A DNA stretch of 24,559 bases, taken from UHGV virus genome UHGV-0135335. One strand, written 5' to 3'. Source of the DNA: a virus. Under the pieces are notes generated by a model. It made no database searches. It was not told the origin of the DNA and saw only the letters and a program-made list of their open reading frames with translations. The position numbers were made by a program, and so were the translations under genes. Below, piece after piece: positions 8,449 through 24,559 of this stretch (position 1 is the first letter of the stretch; every line of letters begins with the position of its first letter).

Positions 8449-8793
8449 ATGAACTACAAATCGCTGACCACCCCGCTGAACACCACCACTGAAAAAACGC
8501 TGCTTGGCCAGAAGGTGTTTATCCGCCGCCTGACTAATACCGAGCTGGATAATTACAACGATACGGTTGATGCAGCACGCAAAGAAGGCCAATCGTCGCG
8601 CCAGCTGTCCATTCTGGGTGCCAGTTTGTTCCTGCAGGCGTTGGTTAACGAAGATGGCTCTCGCCCTGGGAAAAAGGACCTTCCGACGGCGGAAGAACTG
8701 CTCGACGCGCATGCTTCAGCTGATTTGCTGCAGGCGATTACCACCGTCCAGCGCTATTCCTATGGCACGCCAGAGGAAGCGGAAAAAAACTAA
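8449..8793 (+). CDS. Tail assembly chaperone (lambda gpG-like)
   Basis: 114-aa acidic product immediately upstream of the tape measure gene. Ends with slippery A AAA AAC followed by TAA. Confidence 0.7.
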   Translation: MNYKSLTTPLNTTTEKTLLGQKVFIRRLTNTELDNYNDTVDAARKEGQSSRQLSILGASLFLQALVNEDGSRPGKKDLPTAEELLDAHASADLLQAITTVQRYSYGTPEEAEKN

Positions 8794-9032
8794 CCACCTC
8801 GCCCCGGCTCAGACTGCTGTTCATGCTGGCAGACCGCTGGGGCGAGCCTGACCCGCGCAAACTTGGTGACCTGCCGGCGCACATTCTCACCTATTGGGAG
8901 GCATATTTTAACCTCCTGAAGACTGAGACCGCCGGCGAGCCACCGCCATCATCACCGCAGCCTGCTGTTGCACCGTCTGAGGGCGCTCAGCAGTTCGCTG
9001 ATTGTCTGAGGATCTTAGGAAATGGCGGCTGA
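8449..9032 (+). CDS. Tail assembly chaperone frameshift product (gpGT-like); -1 slip at A AAA AAC (8784-8790)
   Basis: The -1 frame is open from the slippery heptamer through to 9032 (KKLTTSPRLRLLFMLADRWG...). Its end overlaps the tape-measure start. This is the conserved arrangement in lambda-like tails. Confidence 0.6.
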
Positions 9033-12358: not shown

Positions 12359-12736
12359 ATGAAAGGACTTTTTTCCGCACTTGTTATGTGTGTTGCATTA
12401 ACTGGTTGTGTCCAACCTATGACAAAAGCTGAAGTTGATCGTGCAGTTTATGAACCGTTGCCTGCAGATTACCAAGAGCAAATAAAGTCAACGATTGAGC
12501 TTAGACTGAAAGATCCTGACTCTGCAAAATATCGGTTTTTCGACCCCAAAAAAGGATATACAGAGGGTACACGGCACTTTGGATTTGTAGTTCCCGTAGG
12601 TGTTAATGCAAAAAATAGCTATGGCGGATATACGGGTTATAAATTGTATTATTTCGTTTATTACAACCAATCATTCAAAGATGTCACCGAAGGCGTAGCA
12701 TGGGATGCAGTCAAATGGTCTGATGACGTCAAATAG
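12359..12736 (+). CDS. Lipoprotein moron (hypothetical secreted lipoprotein)
   Basis: SD GAGGG then ATG 12359. Signal peptide with lipobox LTGC (MKGLFSALVMCVALTGC). Visibly AT-richer than flanking tail genes. Followed by its own terminator. Confidence 0.6.
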   Translation: MKGLFSALVMCVALTGCVQPMTKAEVDRAVYEPLPADYQEQIKSTIELRLKDPDSAKYRFFDPKKGYTEGTRHFGFVVPVGVNAKNSYGGYTGYKLYYFVYYNQSFKDVTEGVAWDAVKWSDDVK

Positions 12737-13567: not shown

Positions 13568-14278
13568 ATGATGCTGAGCCAGCGATTGATTACCGCCATC
13601 CAGAAACACGCCGCGGAAGTGTACCCGCAGGAGTGCTGCGGGTTGATTATCCGCGCGACGCGGCAGCGCCGCTATATTCCCTGTGAAAACACCCACGATC
13701 AGCCCGCCGATTGTTTCCGGATCAGTGCTGAAGCCTGGGCGGATGCTGAGGACGCTGGCGAAGTGCTGGCGGTGGTGCATTCACATCCGGATGCAGGTCC
13801 GCATGCGTCTGCAGAAGACCTGAAGCAATGCCATGAAAGCGGCCTGCCGTGGGTCATCATGTCGTGGCCATCCGGAGAGCATACCGTTACCACGCCAGCC
13901 GATACACCGCCGCTGCTGAAGCGTCCTTTTATTCATGGCAGCTGGGACTGCTACGGGCTTATCCGTGACTGGTATAAGCAGGAGCGCGGTATCGATCTGC
14001 CCGACTTTGAGCGGACCGATAACTGGTGGACACGCGGCGAGAATCTCTACGTTCGGCACTATGCCGAGGCGGGGTTTTACTCGCACGCCAGCGAGCTGCA
14101 GCCGGGCGATATCATCCTGATGCAGTACAAGGCCGATGAAATTAACCATGCCGGCATTTACCTGGGGGACGGAAAGATGTTCCACCACATGTATGGCCGG
14201 CTGAGTGAAGTTGTTCCGTACGGCGGCATGTGGCGCGACCGTACGCTGTTAACGCTGAGGTATAGAGATGGGCAGTGA
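13568..14278 (+). CDS. Tail assembly protein K (lambda gpK-like; JAMM/MPN plus NlpC/P60 domains)
   Basis: JAMM motif HSHPDAGPHASAED (HxH-x7-S-xx-D). Downstream Cys (SWDCYG) and His (INHAGIY) are consistent with an NlpC/P60 fold. Confidence 0.85.
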   Translation: MMLSQRLITAIQKHAAEVYPQECCGLIIRATRQRRYIPCENTHDQPADCFRISAEAWADAEDAGEVLAVVHSHPDAGPHASAEDLKQCHESGLPWVIMSWPSGEHTVTTPADTPPLLKRPFIHGSWDCYGLIRDWYKQERGIDLPDFERTDNWWTRGENLYVRHYAEAGFYSHASELQPGDIILMQYKADEINHAGIYLGDGKMFHHMYGRLSEVVPYGGMWRDRTLLTLRYRDGQ

Positions 14279-14879
14279 ATCCCTTAATACCGTTGAGAAA
14301 GTCGTCCTGGTGCGCCTGTACGGCAAGCTGGGAATGTTATTTGGGCGCGAGCACCGGTTGTCCGTCTCATCCGTACGTGAAGCGATACGCGCGCTCTGCA
14401 TCATGATCCCCGGTTTCGAACTTTGGCTGGAAACAAGCCAGGATCGGGGGATCACGTACGCCATCTTTAACGGCGAACGCAATATCCGCGAGCAGGACCT
14501 GCAGCTGGATGGCGTACACGAAGTTATCCGCATTGCGCCGGTGATTATCGGCAGCAAGAAGAGCGGGATGTTCCAGACGGTTTTTGGTGCAGTACTTGTT
14601 GCCGTTGGGTTCGTTCTTAGCTTTACGCCGGCTATCGCCGCCTCGCCGTTTCTCTACAAAATGGGTGCCGCGATGATGCTGGGCGGCATAGCGCAGATGC
14701 TTGTTCCCGCCGGTACGCAGGGGATGACGACAGAAACGAAAGATACCCGCAAAAGCTACTCATTCGGTGCGCCGACGAACCAGGTGGCCGCGGGGAGTGG
14801 TGTTCCGATTCTTTACGGCATCCGTGAAATCGGCGGCGTACTGATTAGCGGCGGCATTTACGCCGAGGACCAGAACTAA
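14268..14879 (+). CDS. Tail assembly protein I (lambda gpI-like)
   Basis: 203-aa ORF overlapping the K stop. Hydrophobic C-terminal half with Gly-rich segments, in the expected K-I-J order. Confidence 0.75.
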   Translation: MGSESLNTVEKVVLVRLYGKLGMLFGREHRLSVSSVREAIRALCIMIPGFELWLETSQDRGITYAIFNGERNIREQDLQLDGVHEVIRIAPVIIGSKKSGMFQTVFGAVLVAVGFVLSFTPAIAASPFLYKMGAAMMLGGIAQMLVPAGTQGMTTETKDTRKSYSFGAPTNQVAAGSGVPILYGIREIGGVLISGGIYAEDQN

Positions 14880-14896
14880 AAGACCTTTATCCAATT

Positions 14897-14921
14897 ATCC
14901 CGCTTCGGCGGGATTTTTTTT
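14897..14921 (+). terminator. Terminator-like hairpin between I and J
   Basis: ATCCCGC-ttcg-GCGGGAT stem followed by TTTTTTTT. Confidence 0.6.
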
Positions 14922-14935
14922 GCCCGGAGTTAGCA

Positions 14936-17900
14936 ATGGAAATTACAGGCGCAAAAGGTGGCGGCGGCAGCGGAAGTAGCGATAAAGGCGAGAACCGCGG
15001 TACCGAGATCGCTTCAGTTGCTTACATGAAGATATTACTGGCGCTGACCGAGGGGGAAGCCGCCGGCGGATTCTCAGGCCAGGATATTTATCTCGATGGT
15101 ACGCCGCTGCTGGATGATTCCGGGAATGCAAACTTCCCAGGCGTTACCTGGGAATGGCGTAGCGGGACTGTCGACCAGCCATATATTTCCGGCTTTCCTG
15201 CTGTAGAAAATGAAGTGGCCGTTTCTACGGAGCTGAAGTACGGGACGCCGTGGGTTAAGTCGATTAACAACACGCAGCTCTCAGCCGTTCGTCTGCGCCT
15301 GAAATTCCCGAATGGCCTGTATGAACTGCGAGACTCAGGTGGGAAGAGTGGTTATACCGTTGAGTTTGCCATTGATATCTCAACTGATGGCAGTTCCTAT
15401 GTCGAATACGGGCGGGATACCGCAAGCGGTATTGCTAATAACGGCTATGAGCGTAGCTATCGAATTGAGCTGCCACCGGCGCAGACTGGCTGGCAAATTC
15501 GCGTAAGACGCCTTACACCAAACGCCAATGATGCCCGGCACGCCGATACATCCCGGATCGAATCGATAACCGATATCGTTGATGCCAAATTGCGGTATCC
15601 CCATACCTCGCTGCTGTTCGTCCAGTTCGATTCTCAGTTGTTCGATGGTCGTACGCCGACAGTAACGATAAAAATGAAGGGGATCATCGTTCGCGTTCCA
15701 TCGAACTATGACCCGATCAACCGGACGTATAGCGGTACGTGGGACGGGACGTTTAAATGGGCATGGACGAACAACCCGGCCTGGATTTTTTACGACATCG
15801 TGACGAATGCCCGGTACGGCCTTGGTCGCCGCATAACGACAAACCTCGTTGATAAATGGACGCTCTACCAGATTGCTCAGTACTGCGATGCGAAGGTTTC
15901 TGACGGCGCAGGAGGCACAGAAGCGCGTCATCTTTGTGACCTGTACATTTCACAGAGAACCGACGCCTGGACGGTCCTGATGGATTTGGCGGCGATTTTC
16001 AGGGGGATGATCAGCTGGTCGAATAATCTGCTTTCGCTTGATGCCGATATGCCGCGCGAGCTGGACCCGGACTTTGTCTTCAACAAGTCCAATATTGTCG
16101 GTTCGTTCAACTTCTCCAGCTCATCCGAGCGTACCAACTATTCTGCGGCGATAGTGACTTACAGCAACCCGAACAACGGCTACAACGATGATCAGGCCAG
16201 CGTTCACGTACCTGAAGTCTCTTCGCGATTTGGTTTCAATACGATGGAAATGACTGCCGTCGGCTGCACGCGCGAGAGTGAGGCGCAGCGCCGCGGGTTG
16301 TGGGGTATCGAGACGAACCGCGATGATAATGCGGTTGAGTTCAAAACAGGCATGGAAGGCCGTATTCCGAGGGTTGGCAAAGTGATCGGCGTGAATAACG
16401 CACCACTGGCCGGACGGGCGAACGGTGGCCGTGTAGCTGCAGCTGCAGGTACAAAAATCACGCTGGACAGAAATACCGTTGCCGTTCCCGGTAATCGCCT
16501 GATCATCAACCTGCCGACGGGAAAGGCCGAAGGACGAACGATTAAGTCAGTATCTGGCCGCGCGGTCACTGTGGAATCTGCATACAGCGTATTACCTAAC
16601 GCTGAGTCGGCGTGGGTAATTGACCAGCAGGATCTGGCCATCCAGTTATTCAGGGTTCGCCGTGTGGCCATCGGGAGTGATGACCTGGTAACAATATCCG
16701 GGTTGCCCTATAACCCGAACAAATTCGCGAAAATTGATGATGGCGCGATTGTCGAAGACCGTCCTGTGACCGTGGTCCCACCTGGTAGCCAGTCTGTACC
16801 AACGAACATTGAAATCACCAGTGAATACCGAATTGTTCAGGGGATAGGTATAAACACCCTGGTCGCGACATGGGACCCGGTGATAAACGCCATCGCCTAC
16901 GAGGTGCAATGGCGCCAGAATAGCGGCGACTGGATTAATGCAGGCAGGACAGGAAATACCCGAATTGAGGTCGACGGTATTTATGCTGGCCGTTATGTCG
17001 TCCGCGTTCGGGCCATCAACGCGATGGATGTTGCCTCGGTATGGGCAGTATCAAAGGAAGTCCAGCTGGATGGAAAAATCGGAAAGCCGCCCGTTCCTGT
17101 CAATTTGAGAACAACCCCGATGCTATGGGGTATTCGTATTGACTGGTCTATTCCCGCAGGAGCTGAGGACTCGCTCTATACGGAGCTGCAGTATGCGCAG
17201 GAACGCGACGGCAATACGGCGCTATTGCTGAGCAATATTCCATATCCGCAGTCCACATATTCACAGATGGGCCTTCGTGCAGGGCAGGAGTTCTGGTATC
17301 GGGCGCGTCTTATCGACAAGATAGGAAACCCATCGGACTGGACTGGATGGGAGCGCGGTATTTCAAACGATAACTCAGGTGATTATCTGGAGGGGATCGG
17401 TGATGGTTTCCTGACCTCAAAAGACGGTGACGCGTTGACGAGTCAGATTGACCAGAATATCGAGGGGATTCTACAAAATGCGCAGGCGAATAATGCCACC
17501 ATCGATCACCAGTGGAAGCAATATGGAGAGGTTCGCGCTGATATCCTGATTGTCAAAACGACAATTGCCGATGTTGATAAAGCGATGGCCGAGCTATCGA
17601 CGACAGTTCAGGCCCAGGTTGATGATATTACGGCCACGCTGGAAGATAAACTGACAGCGGTTGTCGATGCTGATGGCGCCTCAGCAATTCATACGCTGAA
17701 AGTCGGCGTAAGAATTGGCGACCAATATTATGGTGCGGGGATGTCCGTTGCTGTTATTGCGGATGCTGGTCAGCCAGTAATAACCAGAATTGGATTTAAC
17801 GCAAATCAGTTTGTGCTGATGAGTGGTCTGGACGATAAGCAATATTCACCGTTTGCAGTGATTAACGGTCAGGTATTTATCAGTAGCGCATTTATTCAGG

Positions 17901-18148
17901 ATGGCACAATTACCAATGCCAAAATTGGTAATTACATTCGAGGCAATGATTTTGTAAGTGGTGTTAATGGCTGGAATATTCCCAAGGATGGCACCCCTGA
18001 ATTTAATGGTGGCATTTTCCGTGGTGCTCTTTATGCATCATCCGGCGCATTCAGCTTTAACGGTGTGAATAATACTGTTGTGTTGAATGGTAATGGTGTG
18101 ACTGTAAACCTTCCAAACGGTGGCCGGATCGTTCTCGGCACATGGTAA
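14936..18148 (+). CDS. Host specificity protein J (central tail fibre / tip protein)
   Basis: 1070-aa ORF. The N-terminal 350 aa align by eye with lambda gpJ (for example VRVPSNYDP..RTYSGTWDGTFK versus lambda QVPSNYNPQTRQYSGIWDGTFK). The C-terminal region is divergent. Confidence 0.9.
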   Translation: MEITGAKGGGGSGSSDKGENRGTEIASVAYMKILLALTEGEAAGGFSGQDIYLDGTPLLDDSGNANFPGVTWEWRSGTVDQPYISGFPAVENEVAVSTELKYGTPWVKSINNTQLSAVRLRLKFPNGLYELRDSGGKSGYTVEFAIDISTDGSSYVEYGRDTASGIANNGYERSYRIELPPAQTGWQIRVRRLTPNANDARHADTSRIESITDIVDAKLRYPHTSLLFVQFDSQLFDGRTPTVTIKMKGIIVRVPSNYDPINRTYSGTWDGTFKWAWTNNPAWIFYDIVTNARYGLGRRITTNLVDKWTLYQIAQYCDAKVSDGAGGTEARHLCDLYISQRTDAWTVLMDLAAIFRGMISWSNNLLSLDADMPRELDPDFVFNKSNIVGSFNFSSSSERTNYSAAIVTYSNPNNGYNDDQASVHVPEVSSRFGFNTMEMTAVGCTRESEAQRRGLWGIETNRDDNAVEFKTGMEGRIPRVGKVIGVNNAPLAGRANGGRVAAAAGTKITLDRNTVAVPGNRLIINLPTGKAEGRTIKSVSGRAVTVESAYSVLPNAESAWVIDQQDLAIQLFRVRRVAIGSDDLVTISGLPYNPNKFAKIDDGAIVEDRPVTVVPPGSQSVPTNIEITSEYRIVQGIGINTLVATWDPVINAIAYEVQWRQNSGDWINAGRTGNTRIEVDGIYAGRYVVRVRAINAMDVASVWAVSKEVQLDGKIGKPPVPVNLRTTPMLWGIRIDWSIPAGAEDSLYTELQYAQERDGNTALLLSNIPYPQSTYSQMGLRAGQEFWYRARLIDKIGNPSDWTGWERGISNDNSGDYLEGIGDGFLTSKDGDALTSQIDQNIEGILQNAQANNATIDHQWKQYGEVRADILIVKTTIADVDKAMAELSTTVQAQVDDITATLEDKLTAVVDADGASAIHTLKVGVRIGDQYYGAGMSVAVIADAGQPVITRIGFNANQFVLMSGLDDKQYSPFAVINGQVFISSAFIQDGTITNAKIGNYIRGNDFVSGVNGWNIPKDGTPEFNGGIFRGALYASSGAFSFNGVNNTVVLNGNGVTVNLPNGGRIVLGTW
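16765..16780. other. Degenerate SopB-type palindrome (TGTGACCGTGGTCCCA, 15 of 16 match)
   Basis: One mismatch at position 3 relative to copy 2. Lies inside the J coding sequence. Confidence 0.35.
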
Positions 18149-18152
18149 TAAT

Positions 18153-19118
18153 ATGGCGAGTGGATTATTAATTGATTTAAATGATGGACGTCCTATGGCT
18201 ATTACCGCCGGACTCCGCGCCCCTGTATTCAGTACAGGGGTTGCGGGTGGGTATTATGGTGACGGAAACGAGGTTTCGTATATTGATACGCCTGGCTGGA
18301 ATGGAGGCTATGAATCGGTCTATATCCCCGTAGAAACCGTAGCCGCGTATGAAGTCGGAACGGACCTGTATCCCACGGTTGCCTATCTTACCAGCGTGAA
18401 TCAGGAATCAGGCCGCTTGCGTCTGACCTCCGGTTCAACCAGTGGGCGACCGCGCAGGCGAAATCTGTGGGCCGGTCAGGTCTGGTTTATCACGCCAGCC
18501 AGCCAGTCTGGTAACTCCGGGTTACTTATTCAGGATTCCACTGATTTCACCGTTATACCCACCAACGCCAACCTTGGAAGTTGTATATGGTATGGCGACG
18601 TTAATATAAACGGAGCCTGGAATATACCTGTTGATGGAATGGTATTCGCGTCCTGGGATAATCCCAGCGCGGTGTTATCACGGATGGGCAATACAATTTA
18701 TTGCACACTCGACCAGAATATTTATGAAGAAACCAGCGGGAATATTTGGGTACGCATTGCGATATTCGGGAATGCTGCCCCTTATGCCGGAACAGGGCTT
18801 AATTATTTCAACGCCGCAGGGCAATGCACTTTTTCAACTACCCGCAAACCTTTTGTGATTCAGGGCTTTTTCTACCCGTCGACTAACTGGCAGGGAATTG
18901 GCGGCATGGTCCCGCTCGGAACCTGTGGCTGGGCAGTACGGCCTGCCACCAACTCAACCAGCTGGAACATTGTCAGGATGAAAGGACTGATGATGTCAGG
19001 CGGCAACGTAAAGAGCGGTTTTGGCCGTATCGTCAGACGTGTTTCACGTCAGACCTTCGATATTCAGTCAGAGGGCGTATCGGGCGTAAAACTCCCCGTC
19101 ATCCCGAACTTTTATTAA
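18153..19118 (+). CDS. Hypothetical tail protein (Trp/Gly/Cys-containing; possible receptor-binding accessory)
   Basis: ORF between J and the tail fibre. The start is uncertain (GTG 18120 or ATG 18153) and neither has a strong SD. Confidence 0.5.
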   Translation: MASGLLIDLNDGRPMAITAGLRAPVFSTGVAGGYYGDGNEVSYIDTPGWNGGYESVYIPVETVAAYEVGTDLYPTVAYLTSVNQESGRLRLTSGSTSGRPRRRNLWAGQVWFITPASQSGNSGLLIQDSTDFTVIPTNANLGSCIWYGDVNINGAWNIPVDGMVFASWDNPSAVLSRMGNTIYCTLDQNIYEETSGNIWVRIAIFGNAAPYAGTGLNYFNAAGQCTFSTTRKPFVIQGFFYPSTNWQGIGGMVPLGTCGWAVRPATNSTSWNIVRMKGLMMSGGNVKSGFGRIVRRVSRQTFDIQSEGVSGVKLPVIPNFY

Positions 19119-19131
19119 TCAGGAGTAGGCA

Positions 19132-20454
19132 ATGTCTGCTGGAACTATTTCCATTCAAAATAATGCCGCGGCGGTGGCCGGCGATGGAACGGTATTTACC
19201 ACTGAATTATCCGCGGGTGATTTCATCGTTATTACCACAGGCGGGGTGACCTATACGCTGCCGGTGAAATCTATCGAGAGCGATACCGCACTGACTCTTG
19301 CCCAAAACTACAACGGCCCTGTGGTGACTGGCGCCGCATGGACGGCAATGCCGCGTGATACCCTGAACCGCATCAGTGCGCAGACTGCCGCAGATACATC
19401 GTATTTAGTTCGCCAGCGCGTTTTAGAGGTTGATAACTGGTATCAGCTGCTGGAAGTCAACGGCGATGTGACAATCAAAATGGCTGACGGTTCGAGCTAC
19501 ACTGGCCCCTCCTGGCTCAAGCTGATTGATGCCATGAACAACCCGACCTGGGCGCTGGCCAAAAGCAAAAACCTATCCGACCTGGAAGACCGCGATGAGG
19601 CATGGATGAATGTCCGCCCGACAGGCCCGACACCGCTGGCAGCGGCTCCTGTGGGTGAGGGGGACGCGGCGACAAAGGGATATGTTGATAATAAGAAAAT
19701 TGATATTGCGCACGGAGGAACCGGGGCGACGACAGAAGCGGGTGCCAGGGAAGCCTTAAAGCTATCATCAGCGGCAACAACTGAAATAGGGACCAGTGGT
19801 GCAAAACTTCCGCTTCTGAATGCAGCGAATACATGGGGCGCGACTCAAACTATAAAATCGCCAATAGTGGTCGCCGTCGATGGACCCGCCAGCCCGGCAT
19901 CAGGGCAGCTTATTAATAGTCCTGTGTTGAGAATGCGTGTTAACGGACGCGGTGCTAATGGCGATGCCCTTGGTGAAATTGGCGATATATTCATCCAGGA
20001 AAAAGTAGGTACATATGTCGCTTTAACATTTAATGTTAGCGCTTTTTCTGATAATAAATTCTGGAGCATGAATGCCTCAACGGGGGAAACCTTCTCGCCC
20101 CTTGGTGCTCTGGCAGTTCAGGGTTCGGACGTTCGTATCAAATACAATTTCACACCGCCAAAATTAGGGGCGTGGAAACGCGTAGAGGCAATCGGCATCT
20201 GCGAATATATGTATAACGGCAGCGCCATTCCGCAGCGTGGTTTTCTGGCACAACAGATGGGTGAAGTTGATGAGATGTATGTGTTCGAATCATCTGTCTC
20301 TACCGCGAAAGACGCGGACGGTAACGAATTCAACATTCTGAATGTCAATGACCGTGCTGTGATGGCGGATATGATTATCGTCATTCAGGCACTACAGCAG
20401 AAAGTTACGGCCCTGGAAGCACTGGTGGAGAAAATATCTTCAGGTAATAGTTGA
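19132..20454 (+). CDS. Tail fibre protein with C-terminal peptidase S74 intramolecular chaperone domain
   Basis: SD AGGAG then ATG 19132. The C-terminal 110 aa carry the S74 signature GSDVRIKYN ... GFLAQQMGEVDEMYVFES ... IIVIQALQQKVTALEALVEKI. Predicted catalytic Ser codon at 20125-20127. Confidence 0.75.
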   Translation: MSAGTISIQNNAAAVAGDGTVFTTELSAGDFIVITTGGVTYTLPVKSIESDTALTLAQNYNGPVVTGAAWTAMPRDTLNRISAQTAADTSYLVRQRVLEVDNWYQLLEVNGDVTIKMADGSSYTGPSWLKLIDAMNNPTWALAKSKNLSDLEDRDEAWMNVRPTGPTPLAAAPVGEGDAATKGYVDNKKIDIAHGGTGATTEAGAREALKLSSAATTEIGTSGAKLPLLNAANTWGATQTIKSPIVVAVDGPASPASGQLINSPVLRMRVNGRGANGDALGEIGDIFIQEKVGTYVALTFNVSAFSDNKFWSMNASTGETFSPLGALAVQGSDVRIKYNFTPPKLGAWKRVEAIGICEYMYNGSAIPQRGFLAQQMGEVDEMYVFESSVSTAKDADGNEFNILNVNDRAVMADMIIVIQALQQKVTALEALVEKISSGNS

Positions 20455-20484
20455 AAAAAAAACCGCCATGGAAGGCGGTTTTCT
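20454..20484. terminator. Bidirectional rho-independent terminator between convergent tail-fibre and sopB genes
   Basis: A-run, then CCGCC-atggaa-GGCGG stem, then T-run. Confidence 0.8.
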
Positions 20485-20490
20485 ATTAAA

Positions 20491-21672
20491 TCAAAGTATG
20501 TAGCGCTTGTTTATTTCATCGGCAATTTTCTTAATCCGCTCATTTTCAGTAGCTTCATCCTTCAGCACGGTTCTGGCGAACGGGATCAGGGCCAAAATTT
20601 CGTTGGCGGGAATATCGTATTCCAAGCCTGTAGCCGCAGCACGGATGTAGTTGGTCACATCATTAATTTCTAAAAATGCCTCATCCACTGCTTCACCAAC
20701 CGATTTTTGCTGCTCGGCCTGGTGAGCTTCCAGCAGTTCCTCAATCTTCTGTACTAACGCTGGCGGTACGTTGCTCAGTTGGAAGGATACAGAATCCCCC
20801 TTGTACTTCGCTTTTATCCCTTTACCAAACAGGCGTTCACGCATTGCAGGTTTTACTGGTTTTTGCGCCACCTGGTGTAGCTGGTCAAGAATGTCATCGG
20901 TTTCGAGCTGTTCACCAGCACGCTTACGCTTGGCCAGATGCTGAGCAAACGCAAACATCGCCTCTTCATTCTCGGCATAGGCTTTTGCCAGTGCCTCACC
21001 AGCTCGGGCGCTCAGTTCGTTAGGGTTACGGAACAGGCTAATAATTTCGCGTGGTAGCTCTGCCGTCTTCATGCAGCGGACGATAATTTTTCGGGAGATA
21101 TTCTCAGCTTCGGCCAGCTTGCTGACTGTACCGCCGAACTCATTGGCCAGACGGCGAGCATAGCGCTTTCCGCGCTCGTAAGAGCTGGTCTGCCGGTAGT
21201 CGTTCCCGATCTGTGATAGCCAGGCCATTTGTTCGTCGTCCAGCTCGCCGACGAGAACGCGGTATTCAGAGCTGGTGTAAATGGCTGTCTGGCGGCGGCG
21301 GCTACCGTCGGCCACTTCAATAATGCCAGAGATTTTACGGCCAAATGCTGGGTTCTGTTGCCCGGACGCGAGGAATGACGGGATCAGATCATCCAGCGCA
21401 TCTTTTGTCAGCAGTGCCTGGTCTCGTTCATTTCCGCCCCAGACCATGGTCGCCTTTTCCACCATGTTCGCATCGACGGTTTCCAGTTTGAACGACACAT
21501 CCCGCCCACAGACCGGAAGCGTGATATGGTTCCCGGTCATCCCGCGGACGCGTTCACTGAGGTTAGCCACCGCCGGCGCAGCTGGTTTATGCGCGTCATC
21601 ATGGCGTGGGACCGCGGTCACAGTGTCCAGATTGATTTGTGGTGCGTTTTTCATTACTGGTGCGCGTTTCAT
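20491..21672 (-). CDS. sopB: Partition protein SopB (ParB family)
   Basis: From MKRAPV the product aligns closely with F-plasmid SopB as recalled (LPVCGRDV, GNERDQ, DALDDLIPSF, ADGSRRR, YRVLVGELDDEQM, AENISRKII). ATG overlaps the sopA stop (ATGA). About 70 aa longer at the C-terminus than F SopB. Confidence 0.85.
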   Translation of the reverse strand: MKRAPVMKNAPQINLDTVTAVPRHDDAHKPAAPAVANLSERVRGMTGNHITLPVCGRDVSFKLETVDANMVEKATMVWGGNERDQALLTKDALDDLIPSFLASGQQNPAFGRKISGIIEVADGSRRRQTAIYTSSEYRVLVGELDDEQMAWLSQIGNDYRQTSSYERGKRYARRLANEFGGTVSKLAEAENISRKIIVRCMKTAELPREIISLFRNPNELSARAGEALAKAYAENEEAMFAFAQHLAKRKRAGEQLETDDILDQLHQVAQKPVKPAMRERLFGKGIKAKYKGDSVSFQLSNVPPALVQKIEELLEAHQAEQQKSVGEAVDEAFLEINDVTNYIRAAATGLEYDIPANEILALIPFARTVLKDEATENERIKKIADEINKRYIL

Positions 21673-22838
21673 TTGTTGTTCTCCCAGCGAGTAGCAATCA
21701 GGCGATCGTAAATTTCCCGGCAAACCGGCTCCCAGATAGCGACGGCATTGCGCCAGGCGGTAGGCGTGCTACGTTGGTTTGCAGCCTGCTCAAACACGGT
21801 GCGCATGCGTACCTGGCCTTTACCTACTTCGTCTGTTACGCGGACAACTTCCTTCAGCACCATGCCGCCCCAGGCGTTGCGGATCTGCTCATCCATCCAG
21901 GCAGATTGGTTGCCGACGGCTGTGCTGTATTTAGTTACCAGAACGCGGACATCAGGTTCAAAGCCGCCAAGGTCGACGTTGGCCATCAGGTCGCGAAGCA
22001 TCGTGAAGAACTGAAGAGAGGAAACGTAGTCGTACAGTTCAGCTGGTGTAGGCACAACGATCACATCAGCAGCGCATACGACGTTTATTGTGCCTATGCC
22101 GAGGTTTGGGGCGCTATCAATAACAATCAGGTCGTAGCTATCCCAGACAGACTCGATAGCGGCGCGCAGAAGCAGGTGAGATGCCACCGGCAAGCGACCT
22201 TCTTTCTCCAGTACCTCGATCTCTGATTCGATGCGGTGAATGGCCAGACAGGACGGGATGATATCGAGGTTCGGCCAGCAGGTTGGCTTAATCGCGTATT
22301 CAGCGTTATCACGTTCGCCCAGGTAGTACGGCAGCAGCGTATCTTCTGCGTGGATATGCAGATCAGGGACGTAGCCATGGTACAAACTGGCGGTTGCCTG
22401 TGGGTCAGTCGCATCAATCAGCAGAACGCGAAGGCCCTGCAGTGCAGCCCATTGCGCCATATGTACGCTGGTCGACGTTTTGTATGCGCCACCCTTATGC
22501 GCGGCAATAGCCAGTACAACCGGCGATTGGCCTTCAGGTCGAGACGGACGGGTACCAAAGTGATCGCGCATGGAGTTGATTTGCTCGATGGTATAGCCGG
22601 CACGTTGTGGAACGCGACCGCGAGTCACCATATCAGCCGGCGGCAGTCGCCCACCATCTTCTGCATTGCGAATAGATTGCGGTGTAACACCGATCAGCTC
22701 TGCCGCTTCAGTAATGCCCCAGCGGCGAGTGATGGCGCGAGACTCAGGGCTATCATCGCCAAATTGGGCCTGTGCGATAGCCATTGTCATGGCATGGCCA
22801 CGAGAAATCAGTTCATCCAAACGCGATTTTAAATTCAC
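21669..22838 (-). CDS. sopA: Partition ATPase SopA (ParA family, Walker-type)
   Basis: Aligns along its whole length with F SopA as recalled (AAHKGGAYKTSTSVH deviant Walker A, HAEDTLLPYYLGE, VIDSAPNLGIGTINVVCAADV, VFEQA). GTG start at 22838 is preceded by GGAGAG with a 7-nt spacer. The track ORF extends further, to TTG 22913. Confidence 0.85.
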   Translation of the reverse strand: MNLKSRLDELISRGHAMTMAIAQAQFGDDSPESRAITRRWGITEAAELIGVTPQSIRNAEDGGRLPPADMVTRGRVPQRAGYTIEQINSMRDHFGTRPSRPEGQSPVVLAIAAHKGGAYKTSTSVHMAQWAALQGLRVLLIDATDPQATASLYHGYVPDLHIHAEDTLLPYYLGERDNAEYAIKPTCWPNLDIIPSCLAIHRIESEIEVLEKEGRLPVASHLLLRAAIESVWDSYDLIVIDSAPNLGIGTINVVCAADVIVVPTPAELYDYVSSLQFFTMLRDLMANVDLGGFEPDVRVLVTKYSTAVGNQSAWMDEQIRNAWGGMVLKEVVRVTDEVGKGQVRMRTVFEQAANQRSTPTAWRNAVAIWEPVCREIYDRLIATRWENNK

Positions 22839-22856
22839 TTTCGTACTCTCCGGTAA

Positions 22857-22896
22857 CTTTGCGTAAAAACAGTAAAGCACCAAAAAAGACGCAAAG
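22857..22896. promoter_or_regulatory. Putative sopAB promoter/operator: CTTTGCGT ... ACGCAAAG inverted repeat
   Basis: 8-bp perfect inverted repeat with 24-bp spacing, 20-60 bp upstream of the sopA start. The CTTTGC hexamer is recalled as the SopA autoregulatory site in F. Confidence 0.45.
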
Positions 22897-22951
22897 CAAC
22901 ACAATTTATGCAAAATCCCTTAAAAAAAGATTTTCACAATGACAATCACAA

Positions 22952-22990
22952 CCGTACATCATACGGACAAAACATCCGTACAATGTACGG
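22952..22990. promoter_or_regulatory. Paired palindromes CCGTACAtcaTACGG and CCGTACA-A-TGTACGG (putative operator)
   Basis: Two inverted repeats sharing the CCGTACA half-site, 9 bp apart, in the sopA-TA intergenic region. Followed by the direct repeat TTGATTGA (22994-23001 and 23007-23014). Confidence 0.4.
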
Positions 22991-23232
22991 CTTTGATTGA
23001 CAAAAATTGATTGATGTGTGACCATATGAAGGTTGCAACGAGCTTCAAACATGTATTTAGTCAGTAAGCAATCTATTCATTCATTAGTTAAAGTATTGAT
23101 TTATTAAGAAAACAATAGAGGAATATTAAATGATCAGAGGAACAATCAATCGCGGGGCGGGCAGATACCGATGAACAAGATAAGGAGGCAACCCACTTAA
23201 AAACCAATGTTTGATTTTTGGAGATTTTGATT

Positions 23233-23553
23233 ATGAGAAACACCTACGTAAGTGGTGGTTCCGCAAACGTTGCTTTGGCCGGTGCCAAAGACACGCGCGT
23301 CGAGCTGCGAACCAGCGTCGACATAAAAGAGAAGTTACGAGCAGCCGCTTCTCTGGCTGGGGTAGACATGAGTTCGTTTATTTTGATGGCTGCTACACAG
23401 GCGGCACAGCGCGCTATTGATGCAGAACGCATGCGCGTAGTGACCGCAAGCGAGTGGGCACAACTAAATGAAATCCTGAATACCCCTCATCAGCCAGGCG
23501 ATAAGCTGCGAAACCTGATGACGAGGGAACCTAGGTATGAACGAAAGTACTGA
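23233..23553 (+). CDS. Type II antitoxin, DUF1778 / TacA-like (ribbon-helix-helix)
   Basis: 106-aa product with the usual DUF1778 pattern (LR.S...EKL..AA...G...S.FIL.AA). GGAG then ATG 23233. Overlaps the downstream GNAT gene by 17 nt. Confidence 0.7.
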   Translation: MRNTYVSGGSANVALAGAKDTRVELRTSVDIKEKLRAAASLAGVDMSSFILMAATQAAQRAIDAERMRVVTASEWAQLNEILNTPHQPGDKLRNLMTREPRYERKY

Positions 23554-24091
23554 TGTAAAAATGCAGTTGGTGAAGTGCGGCCCAGAAACAGAAATGAAAG
23601 GGGTAAAAGCCTTCGACTGCGGGGATAGTGTAATTAACAAGTTCGTCCCACAGCTAAAGCGGCAGTGTGGTCGTGACAACATCAACGCATTATTACTGCT
23701 TGATGGGGATAAAAACTTAGTAGGTTTTGCCACGGCCACGCTTTATCAGCTGGGGCGGGAGAGCATCCCGGAAGACACTTATCCGTACGCGCTTCCGCCT
23801 GCAATAGCGGTGATGAAAATCCCCATGATTGCCATCGATAAAAAACTACAAAGGCAAGGCTGGGGGCACGATATTTTACGTGCAATTCTTGATTACAGCG
23901 TCGAAAGCGCTGATTTAGTGAGGGGCATCAAAGGGGTTTACCTCGATGCAAAAATAGAGGCTCGATCGTTTTATGAGAGCTTCGAATTTAGGGCTACCAG
24001 CGAAAGTGTTAGCGAGCATGGCACTATCCCAATGCTTATCCCTATGGATATCCTCCGCGAGAGTCAGAAGAGCTGGGAGCAGTCTGCATAA
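23537..24091 (+). CDS. GNAT-family acetyltransferase toxin (TacT/KacT/AtaT-like)
   Basis: 184 aa with an acetyl-CoA-binding-like segment IAIDKKLQRQGWGHDILRAIL. Gene order is antitoxin then overlapping toxin. Confidence 0.7.
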   Translation: MNESTDVKMQLVKCGPETEMKGVKAFDCGDSVINKFVPQLKRQCGRDNINALLLLDGDKNLVGFATATLYQLGRESIPEDTYPYALPPAIAVMKIPMIAIDKKLQRQGWGHDILRAILDYSVESADLVRGIKGVYLDAKIEARSFYESFEFRATSESVSEHGTIPMLIPMDILRESQKSWEQSA

Positions 24092-24121
24092 AAGCGGCTG
24101 ACGCAAAAGCCAGGAATTAAC

Positions 24122-24149
24122 GAAAGAGCCACCTTTGGGTGGCTCTTTC
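24122..24149 (+). terminator. Strong hairpin after toxin gene (terminator-like)
   Basis: GAAAGAGCCACC-tttg-GGTGGCTCTTTC, a 12-bp perfect stem. The T-tract lies partly within the stem. Confidence 0.5.
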
Positions 24150-24261
24150 GGTTCTGGGTAGCCAAATACAACGTACAGCGCGAAGCGCTGTGGAAGCATA
24201 AGATAAATCAAAACAGCACCAAAAGGTGCAATGTTGATATGAGTGGCTAAAAGCGACAATA

Positions 24262-24526
24262 CGTAACATTATGTTTTTAAATAAAAATAATTGAATATCA
24301 CATAAACTTAGTTAAGCGAATTGGCCATCATAACACGCTGATTCAATATCCTCTTTTATTCATTCAATATCGGCTGGAAATACGCCGTCATTAACGTAAC
24401 ATAATACAAATATGAAATAGTGATATTTCAGAATTCAATAACACTTCATATTATTGCATTAAAAAACCCGTCATCTCGCCGCACAACAATCATCGTAACA
24501 AATAATAAATAAATAACATCGTAACA
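24262..24526. repeat. AT-rich non-coding region with CGTAACA x4, CATCGTAACA x2, ATTCAATATC x2 and palindrome TGAAATA-gtga-TATTTCA
   Basis: Direct reading: CGTAACA at 24262, 24395, 24494 and 24520; ATTCAATATC at 24341 and 24363; palindrome at 24413-24430. No ORF of 60 aa or more. Confidence 0.5.
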
Positions 24527-24559
24527 CATTATAAATATCGACACATCATACTAATATCG

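Follow-up and report, generated by a model that had tools for sequence, protein, structure and literature searches.

Intramolecular chaperones of the Peptidase_S74 family (Pfam PF13884), also known as C-terminal intramolecular chaperone domains, CIMCDs or ICA domains, have been characterised on phage fibres and spikes since 2007-2010 and are by now textbook knowledge. Elsewhere the cargo of these chaperones includes a eukaryotic membrane-bound transcription factor (MyRF), a sialidase tailspike (endoNF) and the GA-1 neck appendage (gp12). Lateral fibres of the T5 family, represented by T5 pb1 (PDB 4UW8) and DT57C LtfA (8HQZ chain d), are proteins of 1076-1396 aa, and their attachment takes place via LtfC/collar proteins.

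A layout with an S74 fibre is already represented in N15, the type phage of the group to which the present element is assigned, and likewise a linear plasmid-prophage of the same class. N15 gp25 ('probable tail fiber component', NP_046920.1) occupies the slot between the J-type tip protein and sopBA, ends in a clear Peptidase_S74 domain (Pfam E 1.5e-11) and has no tfa gene downstream; in the literature, no paper on this S74 domain was found. PY54, the closest relative of the element by its partition protein, has the same gene order of J, DUF6453 and fibre, followed by a convergent parB. Its fibre gene, however, codes for a phage_tail_N (lambda Stf-like) N-terminus and is succeeded by a separate Caudo_TAP assembly gene (gene 25 and gene 27, an Stf-type fibre plus Tfa), and PY54 represents the intermolecular as opposed to the intramolecular chaperone solution in the same slot.

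The locus described here lies in a window of 24,559 bp, which is a whole metagenomic contig (ENA ERZ1744281 NODE_343) with lambda-like head and tail genes, and its features are collected in Table 1. The encoded fibre (440 aa, against 470 aa for N15 gp25) shares a homologous anchor with gp25, residues 1-132 of which are 51% identical to the fibre N-terminus (E 4e-41), whereas the middle and distal parts of the two proteins are unrelated and their chaperone domains show only 25% identity over 72 aa. In N15 the space between J and fibre is filled by cor and further small genes, whereas the window has a DUF6453 gene there. The lateral fibres of T5 and DT57C are 2.5-3 times longer than the fibre. 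Orthology with the PY54 fibre was rejected, as the two show no similarity, and so was a fibre of the lambda Stf/Tfa type, with neither a PF08400 match nor a downstream Caudo_TAP gene.

Table 1. Features at and around the fibre gene (positions are those of the 24,559-bp window).
Feature	Position	Strand	Basis
Lambda J-type central tail fibre / tip attachment protein	14936..18148	+	Pfam FNIII-A_GpJ 1.2e-42, Phage_Tail_Tip 1.1e-40
DUF6453 protein, directly upstream of fibre	18120..19118 (gene-caller start 18195)	+	Pfam DUF6453 3e-76
Shine-Dalgarno AGGAG, 6 nt before fibre ATG	19121..19125	+	read from sequence
Side (lateral) tail fibre gene, 440 aa + stop	19132..20454	+	ORF, PHROG 1980, tblastn
Conserved N-terminal tail-attachment (anchor) module, residues 1-140	19132..19551	+	homologue identity, secondary-structure prediction
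Shaft and hypervariable distal tip, residues 141-331, probable receptor-binding region, C-terminal end of mature fibre	19552..20124	+	
Predicted scissile bond Gly331/Ser332 (Ser332 codon 20125-20127)	20122..20127	+	alignment to homologues
Peptidase_S74 intramolecular chaperone domain, residues 332-440, predicted released fragment	20125..20451	+	
Lys337 codon, predicted general base of Ser-Lys dyad	20140..20142	+	alignment A1, known dyads
C-terminal amphipathic helix 407-438, predicted trimeric coiled-coil core of chaperone	20350..20445	+	structure prediction, heptads
Hairpin between A-run and T-run, probable bidirectional intrinsic terminator	20459..20482	.	folding
sopB/sopA plasmid partition genes, convergent with fibre	20491..22913	-	NCBIfam ParB equivalog 6.9e-135, SopA equivalog 1.2e-226

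The C-terminal domain and its predicted cleavage

Peptidase_S74 matches residues 332-380 of the full-length fibre with 22.1 bits (E 1.9e-4), only 0.1 bit above the Pfam gathering cut-off of 22.0 bits, and the C-terminal domain alone with 24.6 bits. The S74 domain is absent from the precomputed Pfam annotation of the closest homologues (P0001-P0006). A search of the PDB with the single fibre sequence returned a weak C-terminal alignment only (domain i-Evalue 29), so that a family profile was needed. The profile was derived from an alignment of the C-terminal regions of the query and 15 diverse homologues (16 sequences, referred to as A1), each of which matched Peptidase_S74 individually (best E 8e-12). 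Searched against PDB sequences, it detected residues 948-1071 of LtfA, the lateral (L-shaped) tail fibre of DT57C (8hqz_d, E 3.7e-21), a phage tail fibre (8jov_1, E 2.2e-11) and the human MyRF ICA domain (7dc3, E 4.1e-11). Weaker matches were to the GA-1 neck-appendage chaperone in its released form (3gud_A, E 0.06) and to the tip of the S16 long tail fibre (6f45, E 0.094).

For the fold search a domain-only model was used instead of the full-length AlphaFold monomer, and the S74 fold, consisting of an alpha/beta body, a beta-hairpin 'tentacle' and a long C-terminal helix, was recovered in the predicted domain. Sequence identity to the MyRF ICA domain (PDB 7DC3), the endoNF CIMCD (PDB 3GW6) and the GA-1 gp12 CIMCD (PDB 3GUD) is only 10-19%. 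The domain takes up the extreme C-terminus of the fibre (332-440 of 440 aa). Considering sequence, dyad and fold together, it is almost certainly a genuine S74/IMC domain. The initial annotation had read the ORF as a tail fibre with a C-terminal S74 domain of about 110 aa, a reading borne out, with 109 residues found, by the profile searches, the dyad alignment, the predicted fold and the genomic context; the Peptidase_S74 profile search that it had proposed was positive, narrowly for the full-length protein and throughout for the 16 C-terminal sequences.

The motif GSDVRIK corresponds to fibre residues 331-337, with Ser332 as candidate nucleophile and Lys337 as its partner at Ser+5 spacing. 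Within A1, Lys337 is invariant, Asp333 nearly invariant, and Ser332 is present in 15 of the 16 sequences, the remaining one having Cys. Ser332 falls opposite the first residue of 3gud_A ('SDERHK') and opposite the Ser of DT57C LtfA, the motif of which reads SGIEYK as against SDVRIK in the fibre; Lys337 aligns with K592 of MyRF in the A1 profile alignment, and an S-D-x-R-x-K motif is common to the fibre (SDVRIK), MyRF (SDLRAK) and GA-1 (SDERHK). Dyads described earlier, with the Lys likewise at Ser+5, are S911/K916 in endoNF and S587/K592 in MyRF, where cleavage is abolished by S587A and by K592A (PMC8326128), and S1264/K1269 in T5 pb1, where S1264A blocks processing and the Ser departs with the chaperone (PMC4690869).

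Since the cleaved GA-1 fragment 3gud_A starts opposite Ser332, the cut in the fibre is predicted between Gly331 and Ser332. A cut N-terminal to Ser332 would yield a mature fibre of 331 aa (34.4 kDa) and a released fragment of 109 aa (12.05 kDa). The catalytic Ser in GSDVRIK at about residue 332, as originally proposed, is in agreement with the Ser332 and Lys337 spacing and with the alignment to solved homologues, and the proposed mature length of about 331 aa coincides with the boundary predicted from 3gud_A. By analogy with the characterised members, the domain is very probably catalytically active and released.

An alternative is that the S74-like domain is never cleaved and remains on the fibre for good, serving as a cap or trimerisation knob at the C-terminus, in which case the virion fibre would comprise the full 440 aa. 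Besides the borderline Pfam score, the point in its favour is a missing arginine. In phage S74 members an upstream Arg is supplied by the neighbouring chain and acts as folding sensor and as oxyanion hole. This Arg, 14 residues before the Ser, is R897 in endoNF and R1250 in T5 pb1 (PMC4690869); no counterpart was found in the fibre, where Gly318 stands at -14 and Glu319 at -13, and neither Arg nor Lys occurs at positions -22 to -1 before Ser332. Some fibre homologues do have an Arg at -13. However, MyRF cleaves without stalk contacts (PMC8326128), and the missing upstream Arg therefore does not bar membership of the S74 family, for which this residue, not needed by MyRF, is not strictly defining. 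The strong conservation of the dyad beside a rapidly diverging tip also argues against a non-cleaving domain, and we regard a permanently attached cap as unlikely and a self-cleaving chaperone as the preferred reading.

Given the missing Arg sensor and the closest resemblance to MyRF, we tentatively raise the possibility, though a somewhat doubtful one, that this sub-family of fibre chaperones works in the MyRF way, with trimerisation of its own coiled coil alone licensing cleavage and with Ser and Cys interchangeable as nucleophile. Cys is seen in the nucleophile position in three homologues (P0009, P0013 and P0014), which are Kluyvera-type fibres with GCDVRIK, and also in N15 gp25, where Cys353 (NCDITLK) of the pair Cys353/Lys358 stands in place of the Ser332 of the fibre (L005:7569-7976, gp25 residues 335-470). 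The sequences suggest that these homologues and N15 gp25 carry a Cys-Lys variant of the self-cleaving chaperone; a search of the literature found nothing on the processing of these Cys-bearing proteins.

The fibre gene and its neighbourhood

The ORF listing and its translation confirm a real gene that starts with ATG and codes for 440 aa. A profile search matched PHROG 1980 ('tail fiber protein') to residues 1-435 (E 5e-70), and in a tblastn search against phage genomes 384 phage records were matched, mostly annotated as tail fibre among the matches listed. Minus-strand ORFs within the gene (74-105 aa) are without support. Megablast detected no near-identical DNA, either for the fibre gene among phages or for positions 14000-24559 among plasmids; with no close sequenced DNA relative, homology of the fibre is established at the protein level, and the protein itself was found only in metagenome assemblies.

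The convergent fibre and sopB genes are separated by a gap of 36 nt, in which a strong hairpin lies. The hairpin (MFE -13.6 kcal/mol, z -4.3) is folded equally well by none of 200 shuffled sequences, and is probably a bidirectional intrinsic terminator. It has a 9-bp stem with a GC-rich core of CCGCC / GGCGG; A9 stands before it and TTTTCTATT after it. It was found by direct folding and was not reported downstream of the fibre gene by a consensus terminator scan; Rfam gave no RNA family across the whole window. No ORF, and hence no tfa gene, lies between the fibre stop (20454) and sopB (20491), which is what an intramolecular chaperone predicts.

The order of J, DUF6453 and fibre genes recurs in PY54 and in the contig that carries homologue P0002. 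This fixed position between J and the fibre suggests that the DUF6453 protein is not a moron but serves the tail tip or the attachment of the fibre. The DUF6453 protein also matches PHROG 1265 ('membrane protein'), and in tblastn it matches 436 phage records, of which 418 cover 80% or more of the protein, with the best matches in Klebsiella siphophages.

The position of the fibre ORF itself, at the edge of the structural module and beside partition genes, where N15 has the accessory cor and umuD-like genes, would be compatible with a non-virion moron or a plasmid-borne surface protein built of borrowed fibre-like modules. We consider this very unlikely: the gene shares its strand with the tail genes, is separated by only 13 nt from the ORF before it and is equipped with an RBS, the terminator comes after rather than before it, and its N-terminal module is common to N15, Dhillonvirus and many prophage fibres at the same post-J position. 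A chance resemblance of a C-terminal coiled-coil region to S74, with no chaperone or protease domain at all, could appeal to the single-sequence E-value at the gathering threshold and to NCBIfam, which holds no family matching the fibre, but is the least credible of the alternatives, being effectively refuted by the PDB matches of the A1 profile, the S74 scan of all 16 sequences and the fold search. A virion fibre with a true S74 domain is the reading retained below.

SopA of the element is 82.5% identical to PY54 SpyA and 68% identical to N15 gp28, and these identities place the element among the linear plasmid-prophages of the N15/PY54/phiKO2 class. The window is equivalent to the left arm of such an N15/PY54-type element, from the terminase genes to past the sop genes, with the protelomerase and the telomere site falling beyond the contig end; the head genes show about 74% DNA identity to Klebsiella phiKO2-like phages. 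Many N-terminal fibre modules 75-93% identical to that of the fibre occur in Kluyvera genomes, which points to Kluyvera or a close enterobacterial relative as the probable host.

Further observations concern other parts of the window. Near sopAB, at 23218-24091 (+), a gene for a TacA1-like antitoxin (111 aa, Pfam 2.4e-17) overlaps one for a GNAT acetyltransferase (184 aa, Acetyltransf_10 1e-08); judged by these matches, the pair looks like a TacA/TacT-type toxin-antitoxin and may plausibly serve as a maintenance module of the plasmid-prophage. An ORF of 125 aa at 12359-12736 (+), without a Pfam match, lies between the Phage_min_tail (gpM-like) and Phage_tail_L genes, and the related contig carrying P0002 has no ORF at this place. 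At 8449-8851 (+), just ahead of the tape-measure gene, lie a tail assembly chaperone gene (Phage_TAC_14 4.3e-18) and, downstream and overlapping with it in another frame, an ORF that has no Pfam match (8567-8851). Such an overlap just before the tape-measure gene is the usual site of a G/GT-type programmed -1 frameshift.

Anchor, shaft and tip

A region-by-region identity table of 38 fibre homologues, together with structure prediction, gives an outline of the modules of the fibre. Prophage fibres of the Kluyvera type keep 72-97% identity over residues 1-140 even where their distal parts are unrelated, residues 1-187 resemble the N-termini of Dhillonvirus fibres in tblastn, and the module is predicted to consist of a beta domain (1-60) and, after it, a long helix (75-108). 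From these comparisons residues 1-140 are assigned as a tail-attachment module distinct from the receptor binder. By contrast, identity falls to 6-40% over residues 191-331 in homologues that keep both flanks, while residues 332-406 retain 50-73% in fibres with diverged tips. The hypervariable stretch just before the cleavage site is, by its pattern of variation, likely to be the receptor-binding part. The initial annotation had spoken of an N-terminal receptor-binding part, which holds only if it is taken to mean everything before the cut, since residues 1-140 form the conserved anchor and the likely binder is the stretch 191-331. It had also described this part as rich in Gly and Ala; there is indeed an enrichment, but a modest one, with 23.6% Gly+Ala in the mature part as compared with 19.1% in other structural proteins and a peak of 29.5% in residues 141-235.

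Between anchor and chaperone, the fibre resembles proteins of several phage groups. Residues 120-189 match DT57C LtfA 507-578 (E 2e-11), and in tblastn residues ~142-190 resemble T5-like lateral fibres and residues 236-438 the distal ends of T7-like podophage fibres (~40% identity). In the fibres of T7-like and T5-like phages, residues 236-331 and the chaperone domain occur as a pair, and a Tequintavirus ORF annotated as 'chaperone of endosialidase' shows 55.6% identity (E 1e-44) to residues 287-435. Shaft and tip are of low confidence in the full-length AlphaFold monomer (pLDDT 30-50).

Helix 407-438 is predicted at a pLDDT of ~90 in the monomer, and its heptad a/d positions are 89% hydrophobic, compared with 56% overall, in keeping with a coiled coil. 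In MyRF, trimerisation is driven by the corresponding helix (PMC8326128). By analogy we infer trimerisation of the fibre, with which the heptads are consistent.

At the other end of the protein, a match (E 3e-5) was obtained between residues 1-72 (19132-19347) and the N-terminus of a PDB chain of 199 aa, 'Distal tail protein gp20' (23gd_B), and approximately the first 70 residues also match PHROG 9922 ('minor tail protein'). These ~70 residues appear to make up a small adaptor domain common to fibres and non-fibre proteins. Paralogy of the same ~70 residues with the phage's own gpI-like protein was considered and rejected, as no similarity was found.

Proposed maturation of the fibre and its significance

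Taken together, we hold with considerable confidence that the gene codes for a three-module side tail fibre of an N15/PY54-type element, composed of an anchor, a variable shaft and tip, and a self-cleaving S74 chaperone, for which we infer trimerisation, cleavage, unmasking and receptor binding. In the proposed mechanism, the anchor (residues 1-140) would fix the fibre to the tail tip. Three nascent chains would be brought into register by the coiled coil of the chaperone (helix 407-438), by analogy with endoNF, T5 pb1, GA-1 gp12 and MyRF, and the chaperone body, together with the beta-hairpin 384-405, would act as a template on which the intertwined, putatively triple-beta-helical distal fibre folds. 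After correct folding of the trimer, Ser332, activated by Lys337, would attack the Gly331-Ser332 peptide bond, and the departure of the trimeric chaperone (12.05 kDa) would leave a kinetically stable mature trimer of the 331-aa (34.4-kDa) chain. Release of the chaperone may also unmask the distal receptor-binding end; for T5, competition for the receptor was reported for the processed form only (PMC4690869).

The conceptual addition is small, as S74 fibre chaperones have long been known and N15 gp25 has the same layout; of mild interest are two points, namely that the upstream Arg is missing, in the manner of MyRF, and that relatives, N15 gp25 among them, have Cys where the nucleophile would be. 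The predicted boundary is nevertheless of use for annotation and engineering, with the mature receptor-binding protein ending at Gly331 and residues 332-440 being needed for folding in any expression construct, although they would later be lost. An intramolecular chaperone would also explain the lack of a tail-fibre-assembly gene after the fibre in this element, when its relative PY54 has one. If the MyRF-like mode is true, residues 332-440 would constitute a substrate-independent, portable 'trimerise, then leave' cassette, which would agree with the way it has been joined by recombination to tips that are unrelated, in sipho-, T5-like and T7-like phages.
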